Position numbers and translations under genes: made by a program. This document shows, one piece after another, positions 18,324-44,713 of a stretch of 64,000 nucleotides of DNA (its first letter is position 1; each line of letters begins with the position of its first letter). Source of the DNA: a virus. The notes under the pieces are model-generated. The model did no database searches, was not told where the DNA came from, and worked only from the letters and a program-made list of their open reading frames with translations. The DNA lies in the IMG/VR virus record IMGVR_UViG_3300045973_000169, positions 13,000-76,999 of that record. One strand, given 5' to 3'.

Positions 18324-18398
18324 GGGTCTCTCTTCCAGTGTGCAGGAAGATCCGCTCATAACGGATTAAGTAGAGTTCGATTCTCTAGGGACCCACCA
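18324..18398 (+). tRNA. tRNA-Met/Ile2 (anticodon CAT), 75 nt with CCA
   Basis: Full cloverleaf folded: acceptor GGGTCTC/GGGACCC, D TTCC-AGTGTGCA-GGAA, anticodon ATCCG-CTCATAA-CGGAT, T TAGAG-TTCGATT-CTCTA. Confidence 0.85.
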
Positions 18399-26602: not shown

Positions 26603-27509
26603 TAAAATTCAAGTATTCCAAGGAGAAAATCCTGATGTTTGGAAGTATGTATTTGAGAAAGATGATATATGTGTAGAAGCTGTTCTCTATAGATATGAGT
26701 CTTTTCAGAAACGTACTGTTCTTTGTATATCAGTCCAGAGTGGTTGTCCTGTTGGATGTGTATTCTGTGGTACTGGTAAGAAGTTTATTCGTAATTTAAC
26801 TGCTGATGAAATACAATATCAAGTTGACCATGTAATTAATTGGGTTTCGTCTCAGATTGATTGGCCTCTTAACTCTGTTTGTGAAAAATTTCAGATTATG
26901 TTTATGAGTATGGGTGAGCCTATGCTTAACTGGTCTGAAGTAGATAAAGCAATTCGTAGATTGAATGATACATATCGTAATGCTCAATTGCTTATTTCAA
27001 CTATTGGAGTTAAGGACTACAGTGCATTTTTTAAACTATGTGATCTATCTCGTGAAATAGGTAAAGTTGGCTTACAGTTCTCTTTACATTCAGGTGATGA
27101 TGAAGAAAGAGATGAAATTATCCCATTTAAAAACAAGATGTCTATTCGTGAAATTAGAGATGCTGGTATTATGTGGAATAGTTATACTCATAGACCAGTT
27201 TACTTGAATATATGTGTGGATGAATTTAATCTTTCTCCTGAAGAACGTGAGAGGATTAAGGATTTGTTTCCCCCAAGTATATTTAGTCTTACGTTCTCTG
27301 TTATATGCGAATATGAGAATGGACAAGTAGTTAACCAAACTTTGAAAGATAAGATTGATAGGAAGATGCAAAATATCATGGCTAACTTCCTTTGTCATAG
27401 TTATAATGTTCGTAAGTTTGATCCTGCTGGACAAGATGATATTGGGGCTGGTTGTGGTCAACTTTGGTACACTCAATCATGGATGAAGGAACATTTTAAA
27501 GGTAAGTAA
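26595..27509 (+). CDS. radical SAM enzyme, RlmN/Cfr-like (304 aa)
   Basis: CISVQSGCPVGCVFCGTGKKF matches the RlmN/Cfr VSSQVGCxxxCxFCxTG signature with the CxxxCxxC cluster; shorter than bacterial RlmN. Confidence 0.7.
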   Translation: MFSKIQVFQGENPDVWKYVFEKDDICVEAVLYRYESFQKRTVLCISVQSGCPVGCVFCGTGKKFIRNLTADEIQYQVDHVINWVSSQIDWPLNSVCEKFQIMFMSMGEPMLNWSEVDKAIRRLNDTYRNAQLLISTIGVKDYSAFFKLCDLSREIGKVGLQFSLHSGDDEERDEIIPFKNKMSIREIRDAGIMWNSYTHRPVYLNICVDEFNLSPEERERIKDLFPPSIFSLTFSVICEYENGQVVNQTLKDKIDRKMQNIMANFLCHSYNVRKFDPAGQDDIGAGCGQLWYTQSWMKEHFKGK

Positions 27510-27648: not shown

Positions 27649-27858
27649 ATGTTAACATTTTGTTTAATAGTTTTAATAGTTTATCTAACTCCTACTTTAT
27701 TACTTTTAGCACTTTGTGTGTATTTAAGAACAATAGCTAAAGCAGATATTGATATAACACTTAAGAATACATTTAGTTGGTCTTTTGCTTGGCCCTGGTG
27801 GGTAATTATAGGGTTGATTGAAGACTTTAAAAGGAGAAGAGAAAATGATTCTAATTGA
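27649..27858 (+). CDS. small membrane protein (69 aa)
   Basis: Two TM helices. Confidence 0.5.
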   Translation: MLTFCLIVLIVYLTPTLLLLALCVYLRTIAKADIDITLKNTFSWSFAWPWWVIIGLIEDFKRRRENDSN

Positions 27859-28672
27859 TAATAGAGAAGTTAAGTTTGGTAAGTTTCCAAACGGTGAAAG
27901 TAATCTGAACTATAACACTATCGAATTCTGTCATGATAGTGATGTTATTCTTAAGTTTGAGTCTGATATTGATTTATTTAATCTTTATATTCTCAAGAAG
28001 TATATGGATTCTTGTATTTGCTATAATAAGATTTCATTAAAGGTTCTTTATTTCCCTTACTCACGTATGGATAGAGAGAATGATTTCTATACTTTTAATC
28101 TTAAGTATGTTGCTCAGATGATTAATGATATGAACTTCTATGAAGTTATTGTTGGGGATATACATTCAGATGTAGCTCCTGCTTTAATCAATAACTATAC
28201 TGGATATTCTTCTATTGATATTCTGTTTGAAACATTCAGAGATGAAATTGGTATTTCTGATTTTAGTATTATGTTCCCTGATGCTGGTGCACAGAAACGT
28301 TATGGAACTGGCTTTGCTTATCATACTCTTGTTGGATTTAAAGAGCGTGATTTTAGTGATGGGCGTATCCTTGGAATGAAAGTCTTTGGTGATGTACATC
28401 CTGGGAAGCCTGTTGTTATCATTGATGATTTATGTTCTAAAGGTGGAACATTTATTGGAGCAGCCAAAGCTTTGAAAGAAGCTGGTGCTGGTGATATCTA
28501 TCTTATTGTTGGACATTGTGAGAATACTATTGATGAAGGAGCTGTCTTTACATCTGGACTCATTAAGAAGGTCTATACTACTGATAGTATCTATAGTAAT
28601 CCTACAACTATTTGGAATACTTCTGATAGATTGTATGTCCATAAACTAATTGTACATGAAAAGAGATACTGA
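27845..28672 (+). CDS. ribose-phosphate pyrophosphokinase (Prs) family enzyme (275 aa)
   Basis: RBS aaaaggagaagagaaaATG; FGKFPNGES, VLYFPYSRMDRE (PYxxYxRQDR), FPDAGAQKRY and PRPP loop VVIIDDLCSKGGT all align to Prs motifs. Confidence 0.85.
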   Translation: MILIDNREVKFGKFPNGESNLNYNTIEFCHDSDVILKFESDIDLFNLYILKKYMDSCICYNKISLKVLYFPYSRMDRENDFYTFNLKYVAQMINDMNFYEVIVGDIHSDVAPALINNYTGYSSIDILFETFRDEIGISDFSIMFPDAGAQKRYGTGFAYHTLVGFKERDFSDGRILGMKVFGDVHPGKPVVIIDDLCSKGGTFIGAAKALKEAGAGDIYLIVGHCENTIDEGAVFTSGLIKKVYTTDSIYSNPTTIWNTSDRLYVHKLIVHEKRY

Positions 28673-29157
28673 TGAATATAATTCAATCTCCTAAGAATAC
28701 AAATGGATATGAAGTATATTCAATGTTTCTTGCTGGTGGTATATCTGGTTGTGATGATTGGCAGAAGTATGTATGTAATCAATTAGTTGAGCTATATAAG
28801 CCAAATGATGAAGTTTATATATTTAATCCTCGTAGAAAAGGCGACTTAACTAAAGAAGGAGCAATGGCTAGGAAACAAATTCTTTGGGAGTATAAGTATT
28901 TACAATTATGTGATTTTTATGCATTTTGGTTTCCACAAGAAACATTATGTCCAATAACTTTATTTGAATTAGGAAAATACGCTAATTGTAATGCTGTTGT
29001 TGGTATTCATCCTGATTACAAAAGAAGATTTGATCTTGAAATTCAGCTCCCTTTAATAAGTAAAAAGATTAAGATCGTTTATGACCTTGATGAATTTGTT
29101 GAAGCTATTGCAGAAAAAATGTTATTAGAAAGGAAAGATAATGGAGAATGTAATTAG
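28672..29157 (+). CDS. nucleoside 2-deoxyribosyltransferase-like protein (161 aa)
   Basis: MFLAGGISG and FELGKYANCNAVVG resemble NDT-family Rossmann motifs; moderate. Confidence 0.55.
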   Translation: MNIIQSPKNTNGYEVYSMFLAGGISGCDDWQKYVCNQLVELYKPNDEVYIFNPRRKGDLTKEGAMARKQILWEYKYLQLCDFYAFWFPQETLCPITLFELGKYANCNAVVGIHPDYKRRFDLEIQLPLISKKIKIVYDLDEFVEAIAEKMLLERKDNGECN

Positions 29158-29623
29158 ATTTTATGGTAAGAGTAAACCTTTCTTTGAAGGTAGTAACTTT
29201 TATCCTGCAAAATTTAAAGATAGTGCTGGTACTATATGGGATACAACTGAACATTATTTTCAGGCTATGAAGTTTGAAGCTGGATCTGAAATTCAAATTG
29301 GACCAGAAAGCTTTATCCCAATTCGTAAGCATATACATGATCAGCCTACTCCTATGAAAGCAGCAAACGAAGGACGTAGGAGAGATTTTCCACTCCGTAG
29401 TGATTGGGAACAAGTAAAAGACCAAATGATGTATAATGCATTACGTTATAAGTTTACACAGAATCCAGTATGTAAACAGGCTCTTCTTGATACTGGTGAT
29501 GCTGAGTTAATTGAAGCTTCTCCTGTTGATTATTACTGGGCAGAAGGTGCAGATGGTACAGGCAAGAATATGCTTGGTAAACTGTTAGTTAAATTACGAG
29601 AGGAGATCAGAAATGAACAATAA
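29141..29623 (+). CDS. NADAR / YbiA-like (DUF1768) domain protein (160 aa)
   Basis: FYG..FSNF..A.F...G..W.T.EHYFQAMKF, LRYKFTQNP, LLDTGDAELIEASPVDYYWAEGADGTGKNMLGKLL match the NADAR signature. Confidence 0.8.
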   Translation: MENVIRFYGKSKPFFEGSNFYPAKFKDSAGTIWDTTEHYFQAMKFEAGSEIQIGPESFIPIRKHIHDQPTPMKAANEGRRRDFPLRSDWEQVKDQMMYNALRYKFTQNPVCKQALLDTGDAELIEASPVDYYWAEGADGTGKNMLGKLLVKLREEIRNEQ

Positions 29624-31262
29624 GTTATTAGCTGTATTAGCATGTGATGGATATAAGATTGGTCATAAAGATCAAGATGCTCCTGGCGTTGAAAATAAGT
29701 ATTATACATGGACTCCTCGTTCAAACAAATATCTTCCTGAAGTTGAGAAGGTAGTTGTCTTTGGTGTTCAAGGTTTTATTAAGATTCATCTTCTTCAGTT
29801 CTTCAATGAGAACTTCTTTGAATTAGATAAAGAGTATGTTGTCTTTGAATACAAGCGTATTCTTAAATCATACTTGTTCAAAGAGGAGATTGATACAACT
29901 CATATTGAGGAACTGCATGACTTAGGTTACTTGCCTTTAAAGATTAAAGCTATTAAAGAAGGGATAAGAGTCCCAATCAGAACTCCTGTTTTAACTGTTG
30001 AGGTTACTAATGGGAAATTTGCATGGTTGGGTGGATATATTGAAGATATTCTTTCTACTTCTCTTTGGCAGCCAATGACTGTTGCTTCTATTGCTTATGA
30101 GTATAAGAAACTCTTTAAAGAGTTTGCAATGGAAACTGTAGGAAATACTGAATTCTGTAAGTTCCAAGGTCATGACTTTAGTTATCGTGGCTTGATGGCT
30201 GGTCTTGATGCTATTCAGGCTTCAGGTTCAGCTTGGTTACCTTTGTTTGTTGGAACAGATAATATTCCATCTATTCCTTATATGGAAAATGTCTATGGAG
30301 CTGATAGCTCTAAAGAGATTATTGGGTGTAGTGTACCTGCTTCTGAACACAGTGTAGCTGAGACCTATATGGAATTTGATGATGATGGCAATCTTATCCC
30401 TGGTTGGGAAGATGAATATCTCCGTAGATTGATTGTTGATATTTATCCTACTGGGATTGTTTCAATTGTAGCAGATACAATTGATCTCTTTGAGCTTATT
30501 ACTGTTAAGTTAGTTGCTCTTAAAGAAATCATTATGGCTCGTGATGGTAAGACTGTCATTCGTCCTGATAGTGGCAACCCTGCTGATATCCTTTGTGGAT
30601 ATGTTATTAAGAAATTAAATAACCCACTTAATGGTGATGCTGATAAGTACTATCTTCCTTTTGATCGTTGGACTGATGATGGATTTAATGCTTACCAGAC
30701 TACTGATGGAAAAGTTTATAACTTTGATCATAAAGAATTATCTATTGCTGAAACTAAAGGTGTAGTTGAACTTCTTTGGGAGATCTTTGGTGGAACTATC
30801 AATGCCAAAGGATACAAAGAATTAGACTCACACATTGGTACTATCTATGGTGATTCTATTACTATTTCTTTAGCTAGAGAGATCTGTAAAAGACTTAAAG
30901 CTAAAGGCTTTGCTAGTACTAACTGGGTTGCTGGTGTTGGTAGTTACAGCTTGTTAGGACAGTTAAGTCGTGATAGTCTTGGATTTGCACTTAAAGAGAC
31001 CTCTATTACTAGAAATGGTAAAGAGATAGCTGTCTTTAAGGATCCTAAGACTGATGATGGAACTAAGAAATCAGCTAAAGGACGTGTAGTAGTTGTACCT
31101 TCTCCTATTGGTGATGGTTCAATGCGTACTATTGATAACCTTACCAAAGAACAGGAAGAAAAGGTTGGAGCTTTCAACTTACTCCAGACTGTATTTGAAG
31201 ATGGTGTATTGCCTGCAGAAACAACATTAGCAGATATTCGTATTTGTTTAGGTGGAATTTAA
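29613..31262 (+). CDS. nicotinamide phosphoribosyltransferase (NAMPT/NadV) family enzyme (549 aa)
   Basis: N-terminal ACDGYKIGHKDQ matches the NAPRTase-family DSYK.TH signature; the size fits NAMPT-like enzymes. Confidence 0.8.
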   Translation: MNNKLLAVLACDGYKIGHKDQDAPGVENKYYTWTPRSNKYLPEVEKVVVFGVQGFIKIHLLQFFNENFFELDKEYVVFEYKRILKSYLFKEEIDTTHIEELHDLGYLPLKIKAIKEGIRVPIRTPVLTVEVTNGKFAWLGGYIEDILSTSLWQPMTVASIAYEYKKLFKEFAMETVGNTEFCKFQGHDFSYRGLMAGLDAIQASGSAWLPLFVGTDNIPSIPYMENVYGADSSKEIIGCSVPASEHSVAETYMEFDDDGNLIPGWEDEYLRRLIVDIYPTGIVSIVADTIDLFELITVKLVALKEIIMARDGKTVIRPDSGNPADILCGYVIKKLNNPLNGDADKYYLPFDRWTDDGFNAYQTTDGKVYNFDHKELSIAETKGVVELLWEIFGGTINAKGYKELDSHIGTIYGDSITISLAREICKRLKAKGFASTNWVAGVGSYSLLGQLSRDSLGFALKETSITRNGKEIAVFKDPKTDDGTKKSAKGRVVVVPSPIGDGSMRTIDNLTKEQEEKVGAFNLLQTVFEDGVLPAETTLADIRICLGGI

Positions 31263-31591: not shown

Positions 31592-32467
31592 TTGTTTGAA
31601 CTTTTAAATTCGATAGTTATCCCAGATACTAAGATTAAGTTTAAGCATATCTTAATGGGAATTTTTATTTTCTTTACTCTTATCCTTACAAACTGTTCTT
31701 TCAGACGTGTCAAAATTGATGCCGGTGAACAGGGAGTAATTGTATCTCAACCTTATATCTTTGGTTCTGGTGGAGTAAGTGACACAGTTCTTCATACTGG
31801 TGGTTATTGGGTTTGGAAATCTAATGCTGTTTATGGGATTAGAATTCTTCCTCAGCAGGTATCAGAAGACTTTAAGGATATGATGTCTGGTGATAGTATC
31901 CCTGTGCAGTTTGATGCTCATTTGAATTATAGGATTATTGATCCTGTTGTTTATTGGAGATCTTGGGGTGAGCATTGGTATTCTTCTAATATTCAACAGA
32001 CCTTTAGGACTGTAGCTCGTGATGAGTGTAAGCGTTATACTATGTCTAGTCTTATTACAAATCCTGATACTACAAGGGCTATTGAGCTTAAAATTCTAGA
32101 AGCAGTCCAGAAATATGCTGCTGAAAAGAAAATGCCAATTGAATTTACAAAAGTAAATATTGGTAAGATCAATCCTAAAGATGATGTAATGGCCGAGATT
32201 GGACAGACTGCTGTACAGCAACAGAGACAACGTACAGAGCTTGATCGTAAGAAAGCAGAGGATAACCGTAGGATGACAGAAGTCTCTAGGGCTGCTGCTG
32301 ATAATGCTTATCGTGAAGCTATGAATCTTGCACCTGAACAATATATTCGTCTTGAAGCTGTTAAGGCTTATTCTCATGCTGCAGAGGAATGTGCTAAGAA
32401 TGATAAATGTACAATGATCCTTACTCAGCCTGGGAATGAAGTTAAAGCAACTATCCCAGCTCGTTAA
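31592..32467 (+). CDS. SPFH/band-7 (HflK/C-prohibitin-like) membrane protein (291 aa)
   Basis: TTG start after aaggagaagtatt; N-terminal TM then a QGVIVSQPYIFG...GDSIPVQFDAHLNYRIIDPV band-7 core and a coiled-coil tail. Confidence 0.65.
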   Translation: MFELLNSIVIPDTKIKFKHILMGIFIFFTLILTNCSFRRVKIDAGEQGVIVSQPYIFGSGGVSDTVLHTGGYWVWKSNAVYGIRILPQQVSEDFKDMMSGDSIPVQFDAHLNYRIIDPVVYWRSWGEHWYSSNIQQTFRTVARDECKRYTMSSLITNPDTTRAIELKILEAVQKYAAEKKMPIEFTKVNIGKINPKDDVMAEIGQTAVQQQRQRTELDRKKAEDNRRMTEVSRAAADNAYREAMNLAPEQYIRLEAVKAYSHAAEECAKNDKCTMILTQPGNEVKATIPAR

Positions 32468-33672: not shown

Positions 33673-34173
33673 ATGAATTTAATATTAAAAGCATTAAGAT
33701 TTGCAGAAAATAAACATAAAGGACAGACACGTAAGGTTACTGGAGAAGAGTATTTTGTACATCCTTTAATGGTAAGTTATATTGTAGCTAACTATAAGAT
33801 GTCTCAGAACTTAGAGATACTTATTGTAGCTGCTATCTTGCATGATACAGTTGAAGATACAGATACTACTTTTGAAGAGATACTTAAAGAGTTTGGTATG
33901 TTTGTAGCTACATTAGTATTTGAACTTACAGATGATAAGGCTAAGAAAAGGAAGTTAGGAAACTTAGAGTATTGTAAATTGAGATGGTGTGGTCTATCTA
34001 ACTATGCTTTATATCTTAAACTATGTGATAGACTTTACAATATGTCTGATCATCCTACTAAAGAACAACAAGATACTACACTTCTTATACTTGATCATGT
34101 TGAGAGTAAACGTAAATTAACATTATCTCAACAGCGTGTTGTATTTGAAATAAGAAAGGTGATAAATGGTTAA
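33673..34173 (+). CDS. HD-domain small alarmone hydrolase, SpoT/Mesh1-type (p)ppGpp hydrolase (166 aa)
   Basis: ALRFAENKHKGQTRKVTGEEYFVHPLMVSYIV...AAILHDTVEDT matches the RelA/SpoT HD signature (HxGQxR...G.PY..HP..VA...HD.VEDT). Confidence 0.8.
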   Translation: MNLILKALRFAENKHKGQTRKVTGEEYFVHPLMVSYIVANYKMSQNLEILIVAAILHDTVEDTDTTFEEILKEFGMFVATLVFELTDDKAKKRKLGNLEYCKLRWCGLSNYALYLKLCDRLYNMSDHPTKEQQDTTLLILDHVESKRKLTLSQQRVVFEIRKVING

Positions 34174-34702
34174 AGATATTTATGTATTAGTTGGAGCTGC
34201 TGCTCACGGTAAGAGTACATGGGCTGGAAGTAAGACAACTGAATATTTTGCTAAGTGGATGGATGAAAGATCTAAAAATCCAAGTCAAACTGGATCTTAT
34301 GGATATGTAAATGCTGATATGATTAGGAAGCAGCTTTATGGTGATCCTACTATCCAAGGTGATGGCAATGAAGTATTTGGTAAAGTGTTTGAAGCTTATA
34401 CTGGGTTCTTAAGAAACAAGGCAGTTGATTTAATTATTGTAGACAATACATCTCTTAAAGTTAGAGATAGAAAAAGATATTATACATTGGCTCAAACTAT
34501 ATGTGAAGCTATGGGTTATGCTTTTAATTATCACCTTGTATTTTTCCCACCTCATTTTGAGAGAGCTTTAGTTTGGAATAAGCAAAGGAATCGTCAGGTT
34601 CCAGAAGATGTTATTGCAAGACATTGTGCTGTATATCAAGGACCAAGTGAATTTGAAAGAGAAAATTGTATAATCGAGACTGTTATACACAAAGAAAGGT
34701 AA
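34166..34702 (+). CDS. pnk: polynucleotide 5'-kinase, T4 Pnk kinase-domain-like (178 aa)
   Basis: P-loop VLVGAAAHGKSTWAG (T4: GCPGSGKSTWA); NADMIR and IIVDNTSLKVRDRKRY (T4: NRDDYR, IISDTNLNPERR); the C-terminal HLVFFPPHFERALVWNKQRNR region is colinear with T4 Pnk. Confidence 0.8.
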   Translation: MVKDIYVLVGAAAHGKSTWAGSKTTEYFAKWMDERSKNPSQTGSYGYVNADMIRKQLYGDPTIQGDGNEVFGKVFEAYTGFLRNKAVDLIIVDNTSLKVRDRKRYYTLAQTICEAMGYAFNYHLVFFPPHFERALVWNKQRNRQVPEDVIARHCAVYQGPSEFERENCIIETVIHKER

Positions 34703-34705
34703 AAA

Positions 34706-34936
34706 ATGGGTGAGTATAAGACAGAGAAAATTGTATCATTGAATACTCCAGGCTTTACTAGTATCCATGGTAATTGGAGATCTAGACCTAAGAATGGACG
34801 TTTATTTAATGAAGATGAAATTCGCTTGATTAGAGTCCAAGAAGGATCTCTTCGGCATTTAGCTGAAATCCATGGATGTAGTCAAGTCTTAATTCGCAAT
34901 ATTAAAAAAAGATGCATCTATGAAGATGTAATTTAA
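34706..34936 (+). CDS. hypothetical protein (76 aa)
   Basis: RBS aaagaaaggtaaaaaATG. Confidence 0.5.
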   Translation: MGEYKTEKIVSLNTPGFTSIHGNWRSRPKNGRLFNEDEIRLIRVQEGSLRHLAEIHGCSQVLIRNIKKRCIYEDVI

Positions 34937-34949
34937 GAGGAGAAATGAA

Positions 34950-35387
34950 ATGAAAAATATTATGATTCAACCGATTAACCGGTTTAAGAAGATTCTTGTT
35001 GGTGATGACTGTGGCGAAGTATTCGACCCTACACAGGGCAAATTTCTTACTGGGTGTACCGAGAGTTACATCTTTCAGAAAGAACGCTGTGGTGAGCTTG
35101 TAGCTTACAAAGAAGAAGGTTCTGATGCAGTGTATGTTGGCTTTGCTATTATGCATAAAGAAGATATGAAGAAAGGTTATGCTAAAGCAACTACTCGTGA
35201 GAAAGCTTTCCTTGTAGCTGATAAATCTTATCATGCTGACTTCTATACTAATAAGAATGGGGTTGTAGGTGTTCCTCATCTTATTCGTGATAATGTCTAT
35301 TACTTCGCTAAACGTATTGAGCGTTATTTCAAAGGTTGTACTGTCCCATTTTGGGTTAATGAAATTGTTGCTCATTACGAAGCATAG
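34950..35387 (+). CDS. hypothetical protein (145 aa)
   Basis: RBS aagaggagaaatgaaATG. Confidence 0.6.
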   Translation: MKNIMIQPINRFKKILVGDDCGEVFDPTQGKFLTGCTESYIFQKERCGELVAYKEEGSDAVYVGFAIMHKEDMKKGYAKATTREKAFLVADKSYHADFYTNKNGVVGVPHLIRDNVYYFAKRIERYFKGCTVPFWVNEIVAHYEA

Positions 35388-35487
35388 TAGTCAATAGTTA
35401 AAGCTTACTGTAGGTGAACCTACTAGCTGGTGGGCTGTGTAAGTTGTCTGTTTATAGCAGAGCAAACCTATTTATTAAGGAGTATAT

Positions 35488-35670
35488 ATGTTTGAAATAA
35501 TTGGTATTATGTTATGTATTCTTGCTATTTTACATATGCAATATCCTCACAAAACAAAATTTTACATAGAACGTATTATGATTTTATTTAACTACTGCCC
35601 TAACTGTAAAAAGTTTTCAATGTATACAATAAAGAATTATAAGGTATGTTCTAGTTGTCGTAAACGGTAA
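35488..35670 (+). CDS. membrane-anchored zinc-ribbon protein (60 aa)
   Basis: TM helix then CPNC...CSSC. Confidence 0.45.
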   Translation: MFEIIGIMLCILAILHMQYPHKTKFYIERIMILFNYCPNCKKFSMYTIKNYKVCSSCRKR

Positions 35671-35674
35671 TACT

Positions 35675-36025
35675 ATGTCTGGTGTATTATGTAAAGATAA
35701 ATCAGATAAGAAGTATGCGATGTTTAGACATTCAGTAAAGAATCTTCGTATTAGATATGGTATTAGAGCTGATGAAGAATTGTATTTTAAATTATGTAAG
35801 TATATTAAAAATGCTAAAGGAAACACAGAGTTTACTCATCCTGATGGGACAAGAGTTGTCTTTGTTGACAAGCAATCGTGTACTCGATCTGTATGGCGTA
35901 TATACTTCAAAGATAAATGTATAATTGCTGCTTATGATAAGACAAGACATATATTATGTACTGTCTTACCTGCTAATCTTAAAGATGAAGATATAATTTA
36001 TAAACGATGGTTAGAAGAAGAATAA
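35675..36025 (+). CDS. hypothetical protein (116 aa)
   Basis: ORF follows the upstream stop after 4 nt. Confidence 0.55.
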   Translation: MSGVLCKDKSDKKYAMFRHSVKNLRIRYGIRADEELYFKLCKYIKNAKGNTEFTHPDGTRVVFVDKQSCTRSVWRIYFKDKCIIAAYDKTRHILCTVLPANLKDEDIIYKRWLEEE

Positions 36026-36047
36026 TCTTATAAACAACGGAGAGTAT

Positions 36048-36344
36048 ATGTTAAAGGCAAGAAAAGTTTATTTAGTTAAAATAGCTCCTGCTAATCTTAA
36101 TAAATTTATTTCTTTCTCATCTAATTTTATTCCTACTTTAGATGAGATAAAAGATATAATCGAAAATTTACATGAAGAGAATCCTTTACCATTTGATTTG
36201 ATATATGAATGTCATTGTGGATTAGATATTTGGGGAGTCCCTTCTGAATGTAATGGAAAGACTATCCGTTGGTGGAAAAATAAAGGTGAAGCTGTTTCAA
36301 GAGGATTCATCTCAATAAAAGAACAAAATATTTATTTTAAGTAG
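36048..36344 (+). CDS. hypothetical protein (98 aa)
   Basis: RBS aacggagagtatATG. Confidence 0.55.
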   Translation: MLKARKVYLVKIAPANLNKFISFSSNFIPTLDEIKDIIENLHEENPLPFDLIYECHCGLDIWGVPSECNGKTIRWWKNKGEAVSRGFISIKEQNIYFK

Positions 36345-36350
36345 GTAGTA

Positions 36351-36929
36351 ATGAAGAATAAAAGAGTTTGTGTAGATTTAGATAATACACTATGTGATTT
36401 AACTGGTTATGTTTGTGATGAAATTAATTTAGGATTAGGATTAGCTGATCCGGTATTTAATCAACGTATTGAAACATATAATTATCTACAAAATACTTAT
36501 GGAGCTTGGATAGAAGAATTTTGGACTACTCCTGGAATTTATGATAAACATATTAAACCATTAGAAGGTTCAATAGAATTTATTAGAGAACTTATCGCTA
36601 TAGTAGGTAGATTCAATGTATCTATTGTAACAGCGACTCCAAAAGGGCTTGAAGAAGAAAAGAAACAATTTTGTTTCAAGAACTATGGGATTAGTAATGT
36701 TATATGTACCCATGAGAAATGGAAGCATACTAAAGGAGCTATTCTTATAGATGATTATTGGAAACATTGTATGGATCATTTATTACAGAATGATGATCCT
36801 TGTATTTTGTTTAACTATGAAAATGATTATCCTTATGCTGATGCTAAGTATATTACTTTCCCAATAACCAATAAGTTACATAGAGCTGATTCTTATAAGA
36901 AAGTATTAGAGATTATAAAGGAGAAATAA
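36351..36929 (+). CDS. HAD-superfamily phosphatase (NT5C-like nucleotidase or Pnk-type 3'-phosphatase) (192 aa)
   Basis: HAD motif I VCVDLDNTLCD at the N-terminus; the size fits 5'(3')-deoxyribonucleotidase-type HAD enzymes. Confidence 0.7.
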   Translation: MKNKRVCVDLDNTLCDLTGYVCDEINLGLGLADPVFNQRIETYNYLQNTYGAWIEEFWTTPGIYDKHIKPLEGSIEFIRELIAIVGRFNVSIVTATPKGLEEEKKQFCFKNYGISNVICTHEKWKHTKGAILIDDYWKHCMDHLLQNDDPCILFNYENDYPYADAKYITFPITNKLHRADSYKKVLEIIKEK

Positions 36930-36930
36930 C

Positions 36931-37653
36931 ATGGCACGTTATGCTATAAGTGACATACATGGTTGTTTAAGAACCTTTAAGAAAGTGTTACGTTCAGTTG
37001 ACTTTAATAAGAGCGATACGCTTATATTACTAGGTGATTATATTGATAGAGGGTTAGACTCTAAAGGTGTTATTCAATACATTATTGATCTTATTGCAGA
37101 AGGCTATGATGTTATTCCTTTGTGTGGGAATCATGAACAATTCCTTATAGAGTCTATTGGTAATAATGCAGTTCAAACTATGTGGGAACGTAATGGTGGA
37201 GATAAATGCCTTAGAAGTTATGGTGTTAATCATCCTAGTTTAATGCCACATGAACATATAAGTTTTATAAGATCTTTACCTCTTATGCATGTTGAAAGAG
37301 ATTATGTCTTTGTTCATGCAGGGTTAGATTTCTGTAAAGAAGATCCTATTGAAGAATCAAGTGATGAGACTATTCTTTGGAGTAGGATGCATCGCCTTGC
37401 TGGAGATTCACGTAGGAAGAAACTTGGTGGAAGAGTCTTGGTTACAGGACATACTCCTACAGATAAGAAAACAATGATTACAATGGCTATGGGTGAAGAT
37501 ATGATTACTATTGACAGAGGCTGTGTCTTTGAAGGATCTAATTATAACCATATGGCTATTTTTAATCTAGATACAAAACAGTTTAATTTTATTAAAAATA
37601 TTGATACTTTAGAAAATGATTGGGTGAGTAGACATGGATATGCAGGACGATAG
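36931..37653 (+). CDS. PPP-family Ser/Thr phosphatase / ApaH-like metallophosphatase (240 aa)
   Basis: All signature motifs present: DIHG, GDYIDRG, GNHE, VHAG, GHTP. Confidence 0.85.
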   Translation: MARYAISDIHGCLRTFKKVLRSVDFNKSDTLILLGDYIDRGLDSKGVIQYIIDLIAEGYDVIPLCGNHEQFLIESIGNNAVQTMWERNGGDKCLRSYGVNHPSLMPHEHISFIRSLPLMHVERDYVFVHAGLDFCKEDPIEESSDETILWSRMHRLAGDSRRKKLGGRVLVTGHTPTDKKTMITMAMGEDMITIDRGCVFEGSNYNHMAIFNLDTKQFNFIKNIDTLENDWVSRHGYAGR

Positions 37654-38071
37654 GCTTTTAGTTCATATGAATTATAGAAAATATACACCTGAAAACATTG
37701 TCAGTCTAGAGCCAAATGAAGTGTTTGTCTTCGGTAGCAATACCGAAGGCATTCACGGAGCTGGTGCTGCTAGAGCTGCATTGGATTTGTTTGGTGCTAA
37801 GTTTGGACAAGCAGAAGGATTACAAGGTCAGTCTTATGCTATTGTAACTAAAGATCTTGAATTAGGTATGAGGAGTATCCCTCTTGGAGATATATGTAAA
37901 AGTATATTTAAATTCCTTGAGTTTGCTAAAGAGAATGGAGATAAAATTTTTTATGTAACTAAATTAGGTTGCGCTTTAGCTGGATATTCTATTGATGAAA
38001 TAGGTAAGCTTTTTATGGGATTTAATATTCCGAATAATGTTGTTTTACCAGTTGAATTTTGGGAGTGTTAG
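37634..38071 (+). CDS. conserved Rossmann-like protein with FVFGSNTEGIHGAGAARAA motif (145 aa)
   Basis: The glycine-rich motif looks familiar from phage and bacterial proteins, but the family name is not recalled with certainty. Confidence 0.55.
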   Translation: MDMQDDRLLVHMNYRKYTPENIVSLEPNEVFVFGSNTEGIHGAGAARAALDLFGAKFGQAEGLQGQSYAIVTKDLELGMRSIPLGDICKSIFKFLEFAKENGDKIFYVTKLGCALAGYSIDEIGKLFMGFNIPNNVVLPVEFWEC

Positions 38072-38072
38072 A

Positions 38073-38330
38073 ATGAAAGTTGAAATTATTCACGAAGAAG
38101 TAAAGCCAGTTATCCCGCCAGTTAAAGAAGTAGTTATTACTCTTACAGCGAAAGAAGCTTTAATCCTTAAGGTTTTAATGGGACATATAGCTGGAGTTAG
38201 TGGTGGACATGAGCTGAGTATTTTTAGAGATAAAATCTGGGAATCTTTAAGTAAAGATTTACCTGGGATTTATTCTGATAAATTTAAAGCAGTTGAAAAT
38301 GAATGTAAAAATGTTAAATTAGCATTTTAG
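38073..38330 (+). CDS. hypothetical protein (85 aa)
   Basis: RBS ttgggagtgttagaATG. Confidence 0.5.
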   Translation: MKVEIIHEEVKPVIPPVKEVVITLTAKEALILKVLMGHIAGVSGGHELSIFRDKIWESLSKDLPGIYSDKFKAVENECKNVKLAF

Positions 38331-38430
38331 TATAAGGAGTAAATATGTATCAAGCTGTAAGCATATAAATGCAAATGTAGCTATCTGCATTAATGTGTTA
38401 TTAACATCTATCAAAACTAAGGAGTCTCAA

Positions 38431-39168
38431 ATGATAGGTGAAAAGTTTGGTAAGTTAACAGTTGTCTATTTCAATGATTTAAATAAGAGAAAAGAGAAAC
38501 TATGGTTATGTCTTTGTGATTGTGGAAAAGAAATAATTGTAAAAACAAGAAATCTTAAAATTGGAGCAACAAAAAGTTGTGGTTGTTTATCAACAGGCCC
38601 AAAAATTTCTGATCTTACTGGGAATAAATTTGGTGATTTAGAAGTTATATCTTATGCACATCAAGATAAATGGAGAACAAGTTTTTGGAATTGTAGATGT
38701 ATTTGTGGTAATTATACTGTTGCTAGTTCCGCAAATCTTAAATCTGGAAATCGTATTTCTTGTGGATGTAAACATGATGAATGGAAACATAATAAACCAA
38801 AAGGTCAAGATAGTCCACATTGGAATTCAGATATAATTGATAGAAATAGCAGACGACTTGACTATGAAGCAAAAGACTGGGCAATAAGAATTAAAGAACG
38901 TGATAAATATAAGTGTTTAGTTTGTGGTAAATCTCCAAGTGGAGAACTAACAAGTCATCATCTATATAGCTATAATGACTATATAGATTTAAGATATGAT
39001 ATTGATAATGGAATTACTTTATGCGAGCAATGTCATTATTCTTTCCATAAAAAATATGGATTCAAAAAGAACACAAAAGAACAATTTAAGGAGTGGAAAA
39101 ATGAGTTATATGGCAGTAATAGCACGGTTGAAGAATGTCCGTGCTCATCCGAATGCAGACCGGATTAA
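38431..39168 (+). CDS. HNH homing endonuclease with N-terminal Cys-rich DNA-binding region (245 aa)
   Basis: RBS aaggagtctcaaATG; C-terminal SHHLYSYNDY...NGITLCEQCHYSFH; the 3' end overlaps the RNA ligase start by 68 nt. Confidence 0.75.
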   Translation: MIGEKFGKLTVVYFNDLNKRKEKLWLCLCDCGKEIIVKTRNLKIGATKSCGCLSTGPKISDLTGNKFGDLEVISYAHQDKWRTSFWNCRCICGNYTVASSANLKSGNRISCGCKHDEWKHNKPKGQDSPHWNSDIIDRNSRRLDYEAKDWAIRIKERDKYKCLVCGKSPSGELTSHHLYSYNDYIDLRYDIDNGITLCEQCHYSFHKKYGFKKNTKEQFKEWKNELYGSNSTVEECPCSSECRPD

Positions 39169-40471
39169 ATTAGCTAATTGTTTAGGCTATCAAGTTATTG
39201 TAGGGCTTGAGGCTAAAGATGATGATATTGTTATTTTATTTCCTGATGATGGGCAATTAAGTCATGAATATATTTTTAATAATAACCTATATAACAAAGC
39301 AGAGATGAATAAAGATCCTAGTGTTAAAACTGGATTCTTTGATCATAAACGTAGAGTAAGATGTCAGACATTTAGAGGAGAGAAAAGTGAAGCTTATACT
39401 GCTGATATCAGAAGCGTGGAATTTACTGGGGTTGATATTGAAAGTCTCTATGTGGGTGTCCGTTTTGATGTTCTTAATGATATTAGCATTTGCAATAAGT
39501 ATATAACTCAAGCCACTAAGGATGCTGCTAATAAGAATGGGAATAAAGATAAGGTTAAACTTAATGTTATTCTTAAGAAAATGTTCCCTGAGCATATAGA
39601 TACTGAACAGATTAGATTTGCAAGAGATGAAGATCTAATTGGATTAGTTACTATTACTCATAAGCTTCATGGTACAAGTGCTAGAACTGGATATATTAAT
39701 ACTCCTGTTGAAGTACCTTTAAAATGGTATCATAAACTTTGGAATCAGTATGTTAAGTTAGTTGACTATCTCCCTCCTAAGTATACTCACGAGCAGAATG
39801 AAGCTTTATATTTTGCTCCTACTACTATCAAGAAATGGAAAACTATTTTTGGTACACGTAGGGTAATTAAAGGTCCTGTTAATGAAGAAGCAACTGATTA
39901 TCGTTCTTTATGTGCTAAACGATTAGCTCCTTTTATTGAAAAGGGTGAAATCTGGTATTATGAAATTGTAGGGTATGAAGATACTGGTGCTCTTATTATG
40001 GGGAGTGTTTCTACTAAAGAAATGCCTAAAGAATTCCAAAAAAGGTTTGGTGAAACTATTACTTACAAGTATGGTTGCTTACCTGGGACATGGAATATTT
40101 ATGTTTATCGTATTACTCATCAGAATGAAGATGGTGTTATCTATGAACTTCCATGGGCACAAGTAAAAGCTAAATGTAATAATGCTGCTATTAAGCATGT
40201 TCCTGAAATTGATGTTATTTTAACAGAAGTAGCTTTAGATGGTACAATTGATGTTGAAGTTTTAAAGCAAACAATTGAACATTACACTGAAGATGAAGAT
40301 ATTGCTGAACCCCTTGATGCTTCTCATATACGTGAAGGTATCTGTGTTAGGATTGATAATCTTGAGACTGGTAAAATGAAAATATTCAAGAATAAAACTT
40401 TTGTATTTAAGGTGCTTGAAGGTATTGTTAAGGATTCTGGTGTAGTTGATACAGAAGAAGCTGAAGGGTAG
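39101..40471 (+). CDS. RNA ligase, Rnl2-type KxHG nucleotidyltransferase (456 aa)
   Basis: RBS aaggagtggaaaaATG; motif I ITHKLHGTSARTG resembles T4 Rnl2 EKIHGTN; a ~170-aa N-terminal extension precedes the NTase domain. Confidence 0.75.
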   Translation: MSYMAVIARLKNVRAHPNADRIKLANCLGYQVIVGLEAKDDDIVILFPDDGQLSHEYIFNNNLYNKAEMNKDPSVKTGFFDHKRRVRCQTFRGEKSEAYTADIRSVEFTGVDIESLYVGVRFDVLNDISICNKYITQATKDAANKNGNKDKVKLNVILKKMFPEHIDTEQIRFARDEDLIGLVTITHKLHGTSARTGYINTPVEVPLKWYHKLWNQYVKLVDYLPPKYTHEQNEALYFAPTTIKKWKTIFGTRRVIKGPVNEEATDYRSLCAKRLAPFIEKGEIWYYEIVGYEDTGALIMGSVSTKEMPKEFQKRFGETITYKYGCLPGTWNIYVYRITHQNEDGVIYELPWAQVKAKCNNAAIKHVPEIDVILTEVALDGTIDVEVLKQTIEHYTEDEDIAEPLDASHIREGICVRIDNLETGKMKIFKNKTFVFKVLEGIVKDSGVVDTEEAEG

Positions 40472-40472
40472 T

Positions 40473-40640
40473 ATGGAAATATTAACAGTTATAAGTTTAG
40501 TTTTAGTAGTACTTATATTTATTTATGGAGCTTATGAAATTGAATATGAATTCAAATATACTCTTAGATATCATTTATTAGCAATGGTTATAGTAACATA
40601 TACTATTTCATGTTTATGTTTTTATCTTAAAGGATTATAA
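40473..40640 (+). CDS. small membrane protein (55 aa)
   Basis: TM helices. Confidence 0.4.
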   Translation: MEILTVISLVLVVLIFIYGAYEIEYEFKYTLRYHLLAMVIVTYTISCLCFYLKGL

Positions 40641-40641
40641 T

Positions 40642-40878
40642 ATGAAGAGTGCTAAAGATGCAAGGCGTGAGACTGAATCTATTGATTCCAATAAAGCTAA
40701 ATTAGAAGTTGAAAAGATAGAAAAGGCAATTCAAGAAGCTATTAATAATGGTAAATTTAATTGCTATATAGATTTCTATCCTTCAGCTCCTGTTAAATAT
40801 CAAGTAACTTCACTTGGATATTCTATAGGTCCTAATTATGGTAGATATAACGAAACGTGTGTAGAAATATCATGGTAA
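40642..40878 (+). CDS. hypothetical protein (78 aa)
   Basis: ORF follows the upstream stop after 1 nt. Confidence 0.5.
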   Translation: MKSAKDARRETESIDSNKAKLEVEKIEKAIQEAINNGKFNCYIDFYPSAPVKYQVTSLGYSIGPNYGRYNETCVEISW

Positions 40879-40987
40879 AAGTAATCAAATATTTAGAAGA
40901 ACTCTATGATCATTATGACAAAAAGAGTTTAGTTTATCGTGCGGATACTGTAAAGAAAATTATAAAAGAATTAAAAGGAGAAACAAA

Positions 40988-41716
40988 ATGAGTTTCGCAG
41001 ATCTTGGCAAAAAGGCAGATGATGCTAGTCAGGTGGTAGCTGGTGAGGCTACTAAAGTAAAAGGTGAGTTCCTTGGTTTAAGTAAGGCAACTAAGTATGT
41101 AGTATATGGTATTATATTGATTGCTATTCTTGCTCTTGGTTCTTGTATGTTAAAGGGCTGTGGTGCTGATAATCATTCAGCTAAAGCTTCTATCCAGAAT
41201 GTTGGGACAGAGTATCCAGCACAGCAGATGCAACAGCCAGTTATTGTACAGCAGAATGATCCTACATCTGGAGTTCTTACTGGTATGGCTATTGGCTATA
41301 TGATGTCTAATGGTCAACGCTATGATGGTCATAATGGGTATGGTGATTCACATTATCGTGGGCCTGCTCAAGTAACAAATAATACAACTGTAATTAATAA
41401 GGCGGCTCCTAATGTACCTGCTCCTGTTTCTCCCGTTGCCAATGTTCCTGCCAAGCCTTTGGCCGCTGTGGCTCCTGTTGCTGCTGTTGTACCTGCTGTT
41501 GTCAAAGTAGCTAACCCTGGGGATGCTGCTGCTGAACAGATTAGAAAGAATGATGCATTGAAAGCAGAACTTAAAGCTAAACAAGCTGCTAGAGCTTCTG
41601 CTCCTATTAGTTTAAGTAAACCGTCTGCTCCTAAAAGTAGCTTTAGTTCTTTTAGTAAAAGTGTTAGTTCACCAACAAGAAGTAGTTCATCTAGTTCTGG
41701 TTCAAGGAGAAGGTAA
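40988..41716 (+). CDS. membrane-anchored low-complexity protein, Pro/Ala/Val-rich then Ser-rich (242 aa)
   Basis: RBS aaaggagaaacaaaATG; TM helix at aa 38-58; PAPVSPVANVPAKPLAAVAPVAAVVPAVV repeats; Ser-rich tail. Confidence 0.6.
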   Translation: MSFADLGKKADDASQVVAGEATKVKGEFLGLSKATKYVVYGIILIAILALGSCMLKGCGADNHSAKASIQNVGTEYPAQQMQQPVIVQQNDPTSGVLTGMAIGYMMSNGQRYDGHNGYGDSHYRGPAQVTNNTTVINKAAPNVPAPVSPVANVPAKPLAAVAPVAAVVPAVVKVANPGDAAAEQIRKNDALKAELKAKQAARASAPISLSKPSAPKSSFSSFSKSVSSPTRSSSSSSGSRRR

Positions 41717-41828
41717 TGTCAAACTTTGCTAATTATTTGGTTTTACTTGGTATTATTCTTGGAGCATTCCCTGGATATTGGATTGGTAAAAAAGTAGGAA
41801 AATTACAAGCTAAGAAAGAGGATACGAA

Positions 41829-42233
41829 ATGAATTGTGATATATTATTACCAAAGAATGAAAAAGAAGGAATTCTCCTAATAAAAGCTTTACAAGCAATT
41901 GGAATTGAAGACTGTATTGATGAAACTGATCCTAAGAAAACCTATCAAAGAATATTAAGTACTTGGGACTGTATTAACATTATCCCTTCCTATAAAGATA
42001 AAAATAAATTGATCTTTGGTGGTGGGAATAAAAGACAGAAATATTCAACATTTGGTGAGTTACTAGAAATAGTAGCCGCCTATAGACCAGAAATTGTTGT
42101 TGAAGTTAAACTTAATAATGAATATACTGCAATTGTATCAAAAGATGGGATTAAAGTAGGATGTCAAGAATTTTCTCTTGGGGTGATTGACATTTTAGCC
42201 GCTGCAAAAGAGACAATACTAAAAGGAAAATAA
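41829..42233 (+). CDS. conserved hypothetical protein, paralog A (134 aa)
   Basis: Paralogous to 44160-44564 (VEVKLNNEYTAIVSKDGIKVGCQEFSLGVI versus IEVKLNSNYKAEVTKDSVVVGCQTFTHKAI); equal length. Confidence 0.6.
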   Translation: MNCDILLPKNEKEGILLIKALQAIGIEDCIDETDPKKTYQRILSTWDCINIIPSYKDKNKLIFGGGNKRQKYSTFGELLEIVAAYRPEIVVEVKLNNEYTAIVSKDGIKVGCQEFSLGVIDILAAAKETILKGK

Positions 42234-42234
42234 G

Positions 42235-42948
42235 ATGAAACATATAGTGGTTGGAGATGTACACTCTAATCATCTTGCTCTTATTAAAATCATGTTTAAA
42301 TATCCCCCTAGTGAGTATAAATATATATTCACTGGGGATTATAATGATTATAGAGAAGAGAATCCTAGAGAGAAATCTAATTATATAACCACTATATTTC
42401 AGGTTATGAAGATAGTTAATCTCCATGGTGGAGTTGCTCTTCTTGGTAACCATGATGATAAATTGAGAAGATGGTTTAATGGTAGGAATGTAGAAATTAG
42501 AGACGGTTTAACTGAGACTATCTATGATATTGAAAAGTTTCGTAAAGAACCTTATGGACAGCTTCATCTTGATACAATCAATGCTTTTCTTAATAATCTC
42601 CCTTTAACTCATATCGAAGAAATTAATGGAATAGTTTATAAGTTTGCTCATGCAATCCATCCAGAATATGATGAAGTGTATATCCAAACAGGACATAATC
42701 CACCATCTGAGAAAAAATGGAAAGAGCATTGTATTTGGGGGTATCCTAGAACTCTTGATGATGAGAAGGTTTTTCATAGAGTTCACTATTGGAATATTAA
42801 AGAGTATAATGATAGAGTCCCTGAGAATACATTCAAGATAGCTGGACATTATCATGAAGTATTTAAGAATGATAAGTTTCTTATACTTGATGCTACTCCT
42901 AACATTGCAACTTATATTATAGAAGATAACTTAATAGAGGAATGGTAA
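42235..42948 (+). CDS. calcineurin-like metallophosphoesterase (237 aa)
   Basis: GDVHSN, TGDYNDY, LLGNHDD and AGHYH motifs. Confidence 0.8.
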   Translation: MKHIVVGDVHSNHLALIKIMFKYPPSEYKYIFTGDYNDYREENPREKSNYITTIFQVMKIVNLHGGVALLGNHDDKLRRWFNGRNVEIRDGLTETIYDIEKFRKEPYGQLHLDTINAFLNNLPLTHIEEINGIVYKFAHAIHPEYDEVYIQTGHNPPSEKKWKEHCIWGYPRTLDDEKVFHRVHYWNIKEYNDRVPENTFKIAGHYHEVFKNDKFLILDATPNIATYIIEDNLIEEW

Positions 42949-42949
42949 A

Positions 42950-44564: not shown

Positions 44565-44713
44565 AACGTTTGAGAGAAGGTTTTACTTTTACACAAGACC
44601 AATCAATAGGTATGACTTGTAGAGTAGAAAATAATGAAGTTGTCCTTATCCCTTATATAAGAGAGACTGGACAACTTCTATTTAGATGGATGGCAGAATA
44701 TGAAATTAAATAA
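44561..44713 (+). CDS. hypothetical small protein (50 aa)
   Basis: ATGA overlap with the upstream stop; below the track's cutoff. Confidence 0.3.
   Translation: MKRLREGFTFTQDQSIGMTCRVENNEVVLIPYIRETGQLLFRWMAEYEIK

Follow-up and report, generated by a model that had tools for sequence, protein, structure and literature searches.

Which route of NAD+ rebuilding is encoded by four overlapping genes of a large uncultured phage, and what do the two enzymes lodged between the outer genes contribute to it? The operon occupies positions 27845-31262 of a 64,000-nucleotide stretch of the IMG/VR record IMGVR_UViG_3300045973_000169 (record positions 13,000 to 76,999), which in its full length of 64 kb is called the window here. 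It consists of four co-directional, overlapping open reading frames (ORFs) on the + strand. An Adps-like protein of the Prs fold comes first (27845..28672, +, 275 aa), and is followed by a protein of the nucleoside deoxyribosyltransferase (NDT)-like or DrHyd fold that belongs to the Pfam family PF15891, Nuc_deoxyri_tr2 (28672..29157, +, 161 aa). The third gene encodes a NADAR protein with a YbiA-type core (29141..29623, +, 160 aa) and the last one a Namat-like protein of the Nampt fold (29613..31262, +, 549 aa). Successive ORFs overlap by 1, 17 and 11 nt. A sequence-only reading of the window had reported these four genes, and their ORFs, domains and coordinates were all borne out. Furthermore, when genes were called independently on another assembly of this phage, a 55 kb contig of Logan run SRR35489367, the same four products came out. 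The overlapping genes are probably co-translated as a single unit.

Our analysis supports the view that the outer pair is a divergent but ordinary member of the NAD+ reconstitution pathway NARP1 (Adps plus Namat), and not a combination of Prs and Nampt. For the locus as a whole, we consider it probable that it is a NARP1 operon extended by two embedded accessory enzymes.

The outer genes and the NARP1 pathway

In NARP1, the Prs-like Adps pyrophosphorylates ADP-ribose (ADPR), and the Nampt-like Namat joins the resulting ADP-ribose pyrophosphate (ADPR-PP) with nicotinamide (10.1101/2024.02.11.579819). The NARP1 proteins of FADO and SPbetaL1 have been validated, in the case of FADO by deletion (10.1101/2024.02.11.579819). 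The NARP2 pathway, as represented by NadV-NatV of KVP40, also employs a Nampt fold and nicotinamide, but it requires a nicotinamide mononucleotide adenylyltransferase (NMNAT; NadM-Nudix). A published survey found a Namat homologue within 10 genes of 97% of the genes of the Adps clade, and no phage with both pathways (10.1101/2024.02.11.579819).

The product of the first gene matches the domain Pribosyl_synth (1.2e-07) and phrog_619, "ribose-phosphate pyrophosphokinase" (2.7e-67), and misses every NCBIfam cut-off for Prs (for TIGR01251, 84.5 bits vs 113). It aligns with the Adps proteins of FADO and SPbetaL1 and their relatives at 150-174 bits and 39-43% identity, as compared to about 36 bits with the solved Prs structures of the PDB; tblastn gave 43% identity with the FADO enzyme and 40% with the SPbetaL1 enzyme, both of them validated. 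The ICP1 Adps residues F18, R87, H121, D161, K185, D212, D213, C215 and F221 are all kept (alignment A1), and the same alignment gives as window equivalents R74, H107, D146, the Lys of FKERD, and D194-D195. In Adps, the catalytic Lys sits on a beta-hairpin (ICP1 K185, SPbetaL1 K162), and R87, H121, D161, D212 and D213 are the acceptor residues (PMC13586617). The C-terminal alpha11-alpha12 regulatory module of PRS is missing, and the protein stops where the phage Adps proteins stop. Its pyrophosphate-binding loop (PP-loop) reads DDLCSKGGTF, next to DDLSSFGGTF in SPbetaL1 and DDLSSYGGTF in FADO. The corresponding loop of E. coli PRS, DDMIDTGGT, is unlike these. The protein appears to be a member of the Adps clade of phages and not a Prs of the cellular type, an assignment made from scores and failed cut-offs and not from a tree. 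The Namat-like gene comes third after it, on the same strand and in an overlapping operon, which is inside the 10-gene criterion of Osterman et al.

The Namat-like protein matches NAPRTase (2.1e-28), NAMPT_N and phrog_448 (1.3e-167). Its top match in the PDB is SPbetaL1 Namat (9W5X/9W5W) with 469 bits, as compared to 169 bits for human NAMPT; the two entries are crystal structures of SPbetaL1 Namat (PMC12774641). In tblastn, its identity to FADO Namat is 46.6%, vs 29.7% to the Nampt of a KVP40-species phage, and over conserved columns it shares 30-34% of residues with NARP2-type Nampts and about 50% with Adps-linked proteins. A neighbour-joining tree of 56 non-redundant sequences and 485 columns separated an Adps-linked clade, which includes the window protein, from the NARP2-type Nampts (n=4: KVP40 species, Matisse, RsoM2USA and a cyanophage with an adjacent NadM) in 200/200 bootstraps. 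Among the 82 closest Namat-like loci in IMG/VR and GenBank, 78 have an Adps-like gene nearby.

The catalytic core of the Namat-like protein is intact (F189, R192, D216, the His of ASEHS, R317, D319, R453 and D454; the reference core in SPbetaL1 Namat being F189, D215, the catalytic His and R306). A loss of the catalytic His, with SPbetaL1 H207 replaced by the W of GSAWLP in the window protein, was considered and rejected; realignment puts this His in the conserved (A/T/S)EHS motif. Namat enzymes carry a "selectivity clamp" made of a loop (SCL) and a helix (SCH), and the rule for the SCL is an Arg, or a Lys/Tyr followed by a stacking residue (PMC12774641). The SCL of the window protein, TPRSNKYLPE, is the commonest Namat form and keeps the K-Y stacking pair, whereas NARP2 Nampts have ESRGGKF.

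In line with the sequence-only reading, which had seen no NMNAT gene in the window, the NMNAT motif GxFxPxHxGH is absent from all six-frame ORFs of at least 60 aa in the 64 kb window. In its sizeable ORFs, a mid-protein HxGH was found only in a CCA-adding enzyme and in RlaP, and tblastn of the window with NadM-Nudix, Phosso NMNAT, Nudix, PncA, PncB, NadE, Macro, SLOG and DUF4326 queries hit nothing but the NADAR gene itself. The same reading had preferred the ADPR-pyrophosphate route over NadV/NatV salvage, and this preference agrees with the best matches to validated NARP1 proteins, the clade, the residues and the NMNAT-free window. The phylogeny that it had proposed for the NAMPT-like protein places it in the Adps-associated clade, and the active-site residues of Adps and Namat type, whose loss it had seen as speaking against the route, are conserved.

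The operon resembles the NARP1 loci of Bas63, SPbetaL1, FADO and ICP1 (PMC12774641, PMC13586617) in having the same two families on the same strand, Adps first, at 40-47% tblastn identity. It is also like them in its catalytic residues, the Adps-type PP-loop, the Namat SCL, and the lack of an NMNAT in the 64 kb window. It differs from them by the two enzyme genes added between Adps and Namat, by a variant SCH that has only the first aromatic and one additional residue, and by two Namat insertions, of about 9 and about 45 aa, both at variable hot spots. The difference from NARP2 is larger, since an NMNAT is required there and none lies in the window, and the Nampt-like protein, 28-34% identical, falls into another clade.

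From the close homology to characterised enzymes, we infer the following activity for the core pathway. The Adps-like enzyme would take the beta,gamma-pyrophosphate from ATP and place it on the 1'' hydroxyl of free ADPR, yielding ADPR-PP, and on the Namat-like enzyme nicotinamide would displace the pyrophosphate of ADPR-PP to give NAD+ directly. An NAD+ pool drained by SIR2, TIR or SEFIR NADase defences would thereby be refilled without an NMNAT.

The two enzymes between Adps and Namat

The NADAR protein matches PF08719 (7.7e-34; 117.7 bits vs 35.1) and TIGR02464 (119.7 bits vs a cut-off of 73.7). It aligns over its full length with E. coli YbiA (2B3W, 160-aa core; 2.9e-28), with which it has in common the motifs TEHYFQAMKF (SEHYFQAQKF in YbiA) and D.YW..G..G.GKN.LG; another NADAR structure, 8BAU, was matched weakly (2.4e-08). 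A Glu-x6-Lys pair, E37..K44, is present within TEHYFQAMKF and is the likely equivalent of E88/K95 in the NADAR of E. coli C7 (PMC11543638). All tested NADAR subtypes hydrolyse the N-glycosidic bond of guanosine-ADPr in vitro (PMC11125620), and the window protein is predicted to be a ribosyl/ADP-ribosyl N-glycosidase. Matches by phmmer to designed "Pizza" proteins were also obtained and rejected, as they are spurious summed matches to repeated blades, in which 0 stretches pass.

The N-terminal extension that forms the single-stranded DNA groove of DarT1-linked NADARs, and that was linked to single-stranded DNA binding by Schuller et al. (PMC11543638), is absent from the protein, whose 160 aa match YbiA end to end. 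DarT1 toxicity in vivo was relieved neither by YbiA nor by a phage NADAR (PMC11543638, PMC11125620). The core and the motifs EHYFQAxK and DxYW..G..GxN are those of E. coli YbiA, other NADAR hydrolases and the phage protein AdfN (PMC11257639); unlike these, the window gene has no DarT partner and is embedded in an operon for NAD+ rebuilding. The sequence-only reading was right about the identity of the NADAR. As the protein is a minimal YbiA-type core, the action on ADP-ribosylated DNA that this reading had proposed, against DarT, is no better supported than a role on small molecules.

The second gene encodes a predicted N-glycosidase of an uncharacterised family. It matches PF15891 (9.3e-17; 61.7 bits vs 30), and an alignment of 28 family sequences (A2) shows the invariant motifs NPRR, QIxWE and CPITLxELG. 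Its E99, which is invariant in 28/28 sequences, occupies the position of the NDT/DNPH1 nucleophile and, going by motif position and not by superposition, is probably the equivalent of that nucleophile. NPRR may be a phosphate site. An AlphaFold2 (AF2) model of the protein has a pLDDT (predicted local distance difference test) score of 92, and Foldseek ranked the uncharacterised structure 4MCJ (BDI_0649) first, followed by Rcl/DNPH1, MilB/BcmB and NDTs. The protein shares with the NDT/DNPH1/MilB superfamily and 4MCJ the fold and the conserved Glu in xxELG; it differs in that PF15891 is a separate subfamily with its own NPRR, QIxWE and CPITL motifs. The literature that we searched held nothing relevant on PF15891, Nuc_deoxyri_tr2, 4MCJ or BDI_0649, and no characterised member of the family.

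Both middle genes recur with NARP1 in other phages (loci are referred to by L numbers). The order Adps-Namat-NADAR-NDT-Macro is found in L017-L019 and Adps-Namat-NDT-NADAR in L109. An Adps-NDT-Namat order occurs in L125 and NDT-Adps-Namat in L158, in L070 and L077 the NDT-like gene comes right after Namat, and in L032 a NADAR gene is upstream of Adps. In L178, a NADAR orthologue with 52% identity lies 3.7 kb upstream of an Adps-Namat pair on a 205 kb contig. The recurrence extends over distant lineages, with Namat proteins 38-46% and NDT-like proteins 32-44% identical and with varied gene order. In L017, the five genes are tightly packed (7223-10866) and include a Macro domain (1.5e-09), such that an accessory of the NARP1-AP type stands together with both window accessories.

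Among 84 NDT-like loci, a Nampt or Namat gene is found within 2 kb in 11 and within 8 kb in 14. The expectation for a randomly placed NadV-like gene, with one jumbo phage in three carrying such a gene (PMC9503650), is about 0.7% and about 2.6%, respectively, giving binomial P values of ~4e-11 and ~4e-8. Within 8 kb of the NDT-like gene, a NADAR gene occurs in 9 of the 84 loci; DUF4326 genes are near 5. The NDT-like gene accompanies not one but three NAD+ routes, namely NARP1, NARP2 and a PncA/PncB operon. It stands beside a NARP2-type Nampt and NadM-Nudix in L092, L094, L137 and L155. In the Sinorhizobium jumbo phage Phosso (L181; 469 kb, 260908-275324), genes for NadE, a PncB-type NAPRTase, a Nudix protein, NMNAT and an isochorismatase/PncA-like protein are followed by an NDT-like gene whose product is 42% identical to that of the window, in an apparently complete Preiss-Handler NAD+ operon; the same operon arrangement is found in nine IMG/VR loci.

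A phage related to ours (L094, 167 kb contig) bears on how these routes are interchanged. It keeps the radical SAM (64% identity), HD_4 (68%), SPFH (63%) and NDT-like (47%) proteins of the window. Beside its NDT-like gene, at the syntenic position, lies a Nampt that is 28% identical to the window Namat-like protein, with NadM-Nudix upstream, and no Adps or NADAR was found in the 12.5 kb examined. Thus, one locus has seen a swap between NARP1 and NARP2 in which the NDT-like gene was retained, which is direct evidence for a modular evolution of these counter-defences.

The sequence-only reading had suggested that the middle genes extend the module toward the processing of ADPR or deoxyribosyl compounds. 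The extension is supported by gene neighbourhoods alone. The deoxyribosyl part is not, because the NDT-like gene also accompanies NARP2 and PncA/PncB, which points to a step common to all routes. We propose, from the gene neighbourhoods alone, that both enzymes would make the two substrates of NARP1 out of other molecules that are NAD+-derived or ribosyl-linked. The NADAR would free ADPR from N-linked ADP-ribosyl conjugates, and the NDT-like protein would free nicotinamide, e.g., from nicotinamide mononucleotide (NMN) or another pyridine (deoxy)ribonucleotide. An NDT-like nucleotide N-glycosidase that releases nicotinamide is our preferred, though weak, guess, and we make it because its partners Namat, Nampt and PncA all consume nicotinamide. 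In its strongest form, the proposal is that PF15891 is an unrecognised NAD+-rebuilding N-glycosidase acting upstream of Namat, Nampt or PncA, and that together with an ADPR-freeing NADAR it makes a four-enzyme NARP1; this we hold to be possible rather than probable. If true, the four-enzyme pathway would rebuild NAD+ from breakdown products that are closed to the two-enzyme one, and would counter non-canonical NAD+-targeting defences.

There are two precedents for enzymes embedded in NARP1. NARP1-AP has the order Adps, Adpp (a Macro phosphatase), Namat, and Adpp converts ADPR-1''P, a non-canonical product of NAD+ breakdown, to ADPR (10.64898/2026.01.28.702374). The window operon is like it in having accessory enzyme genes embedded between the core genes, and unlike it in that the inserts are NADAR and PF15891 N-glycosidase folds and not a phosphatase; the middle genes have no Macro match, and tblastn with the Macro protein of L017 found none in the window. 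RyDEP, a RyR-domain O-glycosidase in the NARP1 locus of mycobacteriophage DyoEdafos, turns 2'/3'cADPR (cyclic ADPR) into linear ADPR for the core enzymes (10.64898/2026.05.28.727677). It shares with the window the insertion of glycosidase genes, predicted ones in our case, in a NARP1 operon; the window proteins have unrelated folds and are expected to cut N-glycosidic bonds.

Three further observations concern L177 and L178. Both loci hold closest relatives of the window Namat, and in both, genes with weak HNH endonuclease matches, below the Pfam cut-off, lie between Adps and Namat. In L178, the Namat ORF breaks off at the SCH with a LAGLIDADG endonuclease gene after it, a combination that suggests an intron or other invasion of this Namat (coordinates of these features: L177 6295-7011, L178 6337-7008 and 8492-9289). 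Directly 5' of the NADAR gene of L178 is a SLOG/DprA-like gene (DNA_processg_A), the pair lying at 2270-3265.

Weighing the alternatives

Several observations weigh against an extended NARP1 operon. In a first screen, a search of the 8 kb around the NDT-like gene met none of Nampt/Namat, Adps, NADAR and NadM in 59 of the 84 loci, and about 50 loci were still without any NAD+- or ADPR-related gene in a second screen. PF15891 may have a function broader than NAD+ metabolism, since most NDT-like loci lack NAD+ genes. Phage NADARs are known as anti-DarT1 factors, a role without a link to NARP1 (PMC11257639), and unrelated insertions do occur in NARP1 loci, e.g., the HNH endonucleases in L177 and L178. 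Nicotinamide release from NMN seems pointless in NARP2 phages, which are able to adenylate NMN directly. Regarding the core, the NMNAT search covered the 64 kb window, and about 142 kb of the source contig lies outside it. The Namat SCH, too, deviates from the published signature, as detailed below.

One rival explanation leaves the core NARP1 in place and takes the two middle genes as passengers, brought there by mere gene clustering. The NADAR would then be an AdfN-like anti-DarT1 protein, and the NDT-like protein a nucleotide-pool enzyme, e.g., a DNPH1-like N-hydrolase of (deoxy)nucleoside monophosphates. Orphan phage NADARs do neutralise DarTG1 (PMC11257639), and among characterised folds, DNPH1/Rcl and the CMP N-glycosidases MilB/BcmB come closest to the NDT-like model. 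Besides the many NDT-like loci without NAD+ genes, some are found amid genes for dCMP deaminase and ribonucleotide reductase, e.g., L093. Unrelated HNH genes have likewise settled between Adps and Namat, and the surroundings of the window operon are a mixed auxiliary island. However, passengers would not be expected to overlap their operon neighbours by 1-17 nt, nor would both families be expected to recur with NARP1 in varied order in lineages as distant as those described above. The adjacency of NDT-like and Nampt/Namat genes is more than 10-fold over expectation and extends to PncA/PncB operons, and a minimal YbiA core without the single-stranded DNA extension speaks against an anti-DarT1 protein, as does the failure of YbiA and a phage NADAR in the DarT1 rescue. 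We regard the passenger explanation as unlikely, though readily conceivable.

Slightly less likely still, in our estimate, is that the NADAR, the NDT-like protein or both serve to destroy immune signals, by cleaving N-glycosidic ADPR messengers such as N1-cADPR or those of Thoeris systems of the His-ADPR type, with the recycling of ADPR as a by-product. RyDEP does so for O-glycosidic 2'/3'cADPR from within a NARP1 operon (10.64898/2026.05.28.727677), and according to a prediction by Iyer et al. (2022), N-glycosidic derivatives of ADPr, cADPr among them, are processed by phage NADAR and by TIR/DrHyd/SLOG-class domains (PMC9503650). The co-occurrence of NADAR, SLOG, DUF4326 and Macro genes near NDT-like genes would also be in keeping with this idea. 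However, it leaves unexplained why NDT-like genes stand beside PncA-like amidases in Preiss-Handler operons. The NPRR motif suggests a phosphate-bearing substrate and fits either idea.

As for the selectivity clamp, the SCH consensus is GSXphiXphiXphiTRD, with aromatics at positions 3 and 7 (PMC12774641). The window sequence, GSYSLLGQLSRD, has an aromatic at position 3 but not at positions 5 and 7, and is one residue longer. It has Leu and Gly/Gln in place of Tyr, and its tail resembles the GGLLQ..RD of Nampt. Because the signature is only partly matched, the preference for ADPR-PP over phosphoribosyl pyrophosphate (PRPP) could be weaker in this enzyme. The nearest relatives, at 58-63% identity in a set of 5.8 billion proteins, share the variant GS[WY]S[YL]LG[KQR]LSRD, and in 3/3 relatives whose contigs were looked up an Adps-like gene adjoins the variant-SCH Namat; further Adps-linked SCH variants are found in L047, L074, L082 and L089. 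Since close relatives share both the variant and the Adps-like neighbour, the variant SCH reads as a conserved trait of an Adps-linked sub-clade and not as gene decay. In published mutagenesis, single substitutions in the clamp cost 1.3-1.7-fold, and the worst double mutant combined an SCL residue with the first SCH aromatic (PMC12774641). The window protein keeps both of these positions.

Classical salvage of the NARP2/KVP40 kind, in which the Prs-like protein would provide PRPP, the Nampt-like protein NMN, and an NMNAT encoded elsewhere in the phage genome or by the host (NadR/NadD, PncC) the last step, is very improbable: it has in its favour the Pfam and NCBIfam names, which suggest Prs plus a nicotinate/nicotinamide phosphoribosyltransferase, the SCH tail LLGQLSRD with its likeness to Nampt, the fact that Namat enzymes still form NMN from PRPP in vitro (PMC12774641), the coverage of about one third of the contig by the window, and the use of Nampt and NadM-Nudix by the related phage L094, but it has against it the failed Prs cut-offs and the far higher scores to validated Adps, the 200/200 split from NARP2-type Nampts, a 64 kb window in which no NMNAT was found, and the survey with its 97% Adps-Namat adjacency and no dual-pathway phage (10.1101/2024.02.11.579819). 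A NARP1 operon with two accessory enzymes is the reading that we retain.

Surroundings and significance of the locus

The source is a large uncultured phage without a close sequenced relative, on a JGI contig of at least 206,638 bp. No GenBank phage matched the locus at the nucleotide level, a protein-pattern search of IMG/VR gave no close relatives of the NDT-like gene, and the highest Namat identity found anywhere, in the set of 5.8 billion proteins, is 63%. The entire window is transcribed from one strand. Its GC content is 43-48% in positions 1-10000 and 29-38%, roughly 30-35%, in the remainder, and the high-GC first 10 kb hold a 1030-aa ORF (4156-7248) without a Pfam match. There are two tRNA genes, tRNA-Leu (TAA) at 10721-10807 (+) and tRNA-Met (CAT) at 18324-18398 (+).

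The flanking genes are a typical auxiliary set of large phages, and the region is a mixed auxiliary island. Upstream of the operon lie a TROVE/vWA gene (Ro60-like; DUF2828 + DUF7788; 22602-23978, +), a ferritin/bacterioferritin-like gene (24970-25440, +) and a gene for an RlmN/Cfr-like radical SAM protein of 304 aa (26595-27509, +; TIGR00048 at 3.4e-31, far under the cut-off). A TROVE/vWA_Ro60 gene is also near the NDT-like gene in L093, and L137 has a homologue with 33% identity. Radical SAM homologues adjoin NAD+ or NDT-like genes in L094 (64%, beside NadM), L109 (NADAR), L155 (Nampt), L092, L095 and L096, and the radical SAM gene may belong to the same conserved neighbourhood. Just 3' of Namat is an SPFH/Band_7 gene (31592-32467, +); its orthologue (63%) follows the Nampt gene in L094, and Band_7 proteins are found between Adps-like and Namat in L070 and near NadM in L095.

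Further downstream, 33673-46062 (+) looks like a cluster for RNA repair and nucleotide signals. It comprises, all on the + strand, genes for a RelA/SpoT-type HD_4 hydrolase (33673-34173), an AAA_33 kinase (34166-34702), NT5C (36351-36929), an ApaH/Pnkp-like metallophosphatase (36931-37653), an RNA ligase (38996-40471), the CCA-adding enzyme with an HD domain (42950-44170) and RlaP (44920-46062). A scan for promoters and terminators around the operon found fewer sites than in shuffled controls and no terminator 3' of Namat, and is uninformative. PADLOC gave only marginal matches (ShosT PRTase 9.5e-05; PDC-M42C 1.2e-07) and no sign of a defence system.

The two-gene core pathway is already known, and what is new here are the accessory enzymes and the swap of NARP1 and NARP2. 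An association of NADAR with phage NadV/NadM has been noted in a comparative survey, which described viral DrHyd versions only as ARC-like and did not report any DrHyd of the PF15891 type in viruses (PMC9503650). In the literature searched, neither NADAR nor PF15891 is described as a component of NARP1, the NAD+ salvage neighbourhoods of PF15891 are likewise undescribed, and "NADAR" and "NARP1" are mentioned together only in unrelated sentences of a single paper; the supplements of the aRES/NARP1-AP preprint do not mention NADAR or a deoxyribosyltransferase. By analogy to NARP1-AP and RyDEP, the locus looks like an undescribed extended NARP1.

NAD+ depletion is among the commonest anti-phage strategies of bacteria, and NARP1 is the main known answer of phages to it. 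Two preprints of 2026 describe how genes embedded in NARP1, those for Adpp and RyDEP, equip the pathway against new chemistries of defence. In this context, NADAR and PF15891 are two more embedded enzymes that recur with NARP1 in unrelated phage lineages. PF15891, which tracks three NAD+ routes, makes a clear-cut candidate for a step that is missing so far, and it may signal a defence chemistry still without an assigned counter-defence.

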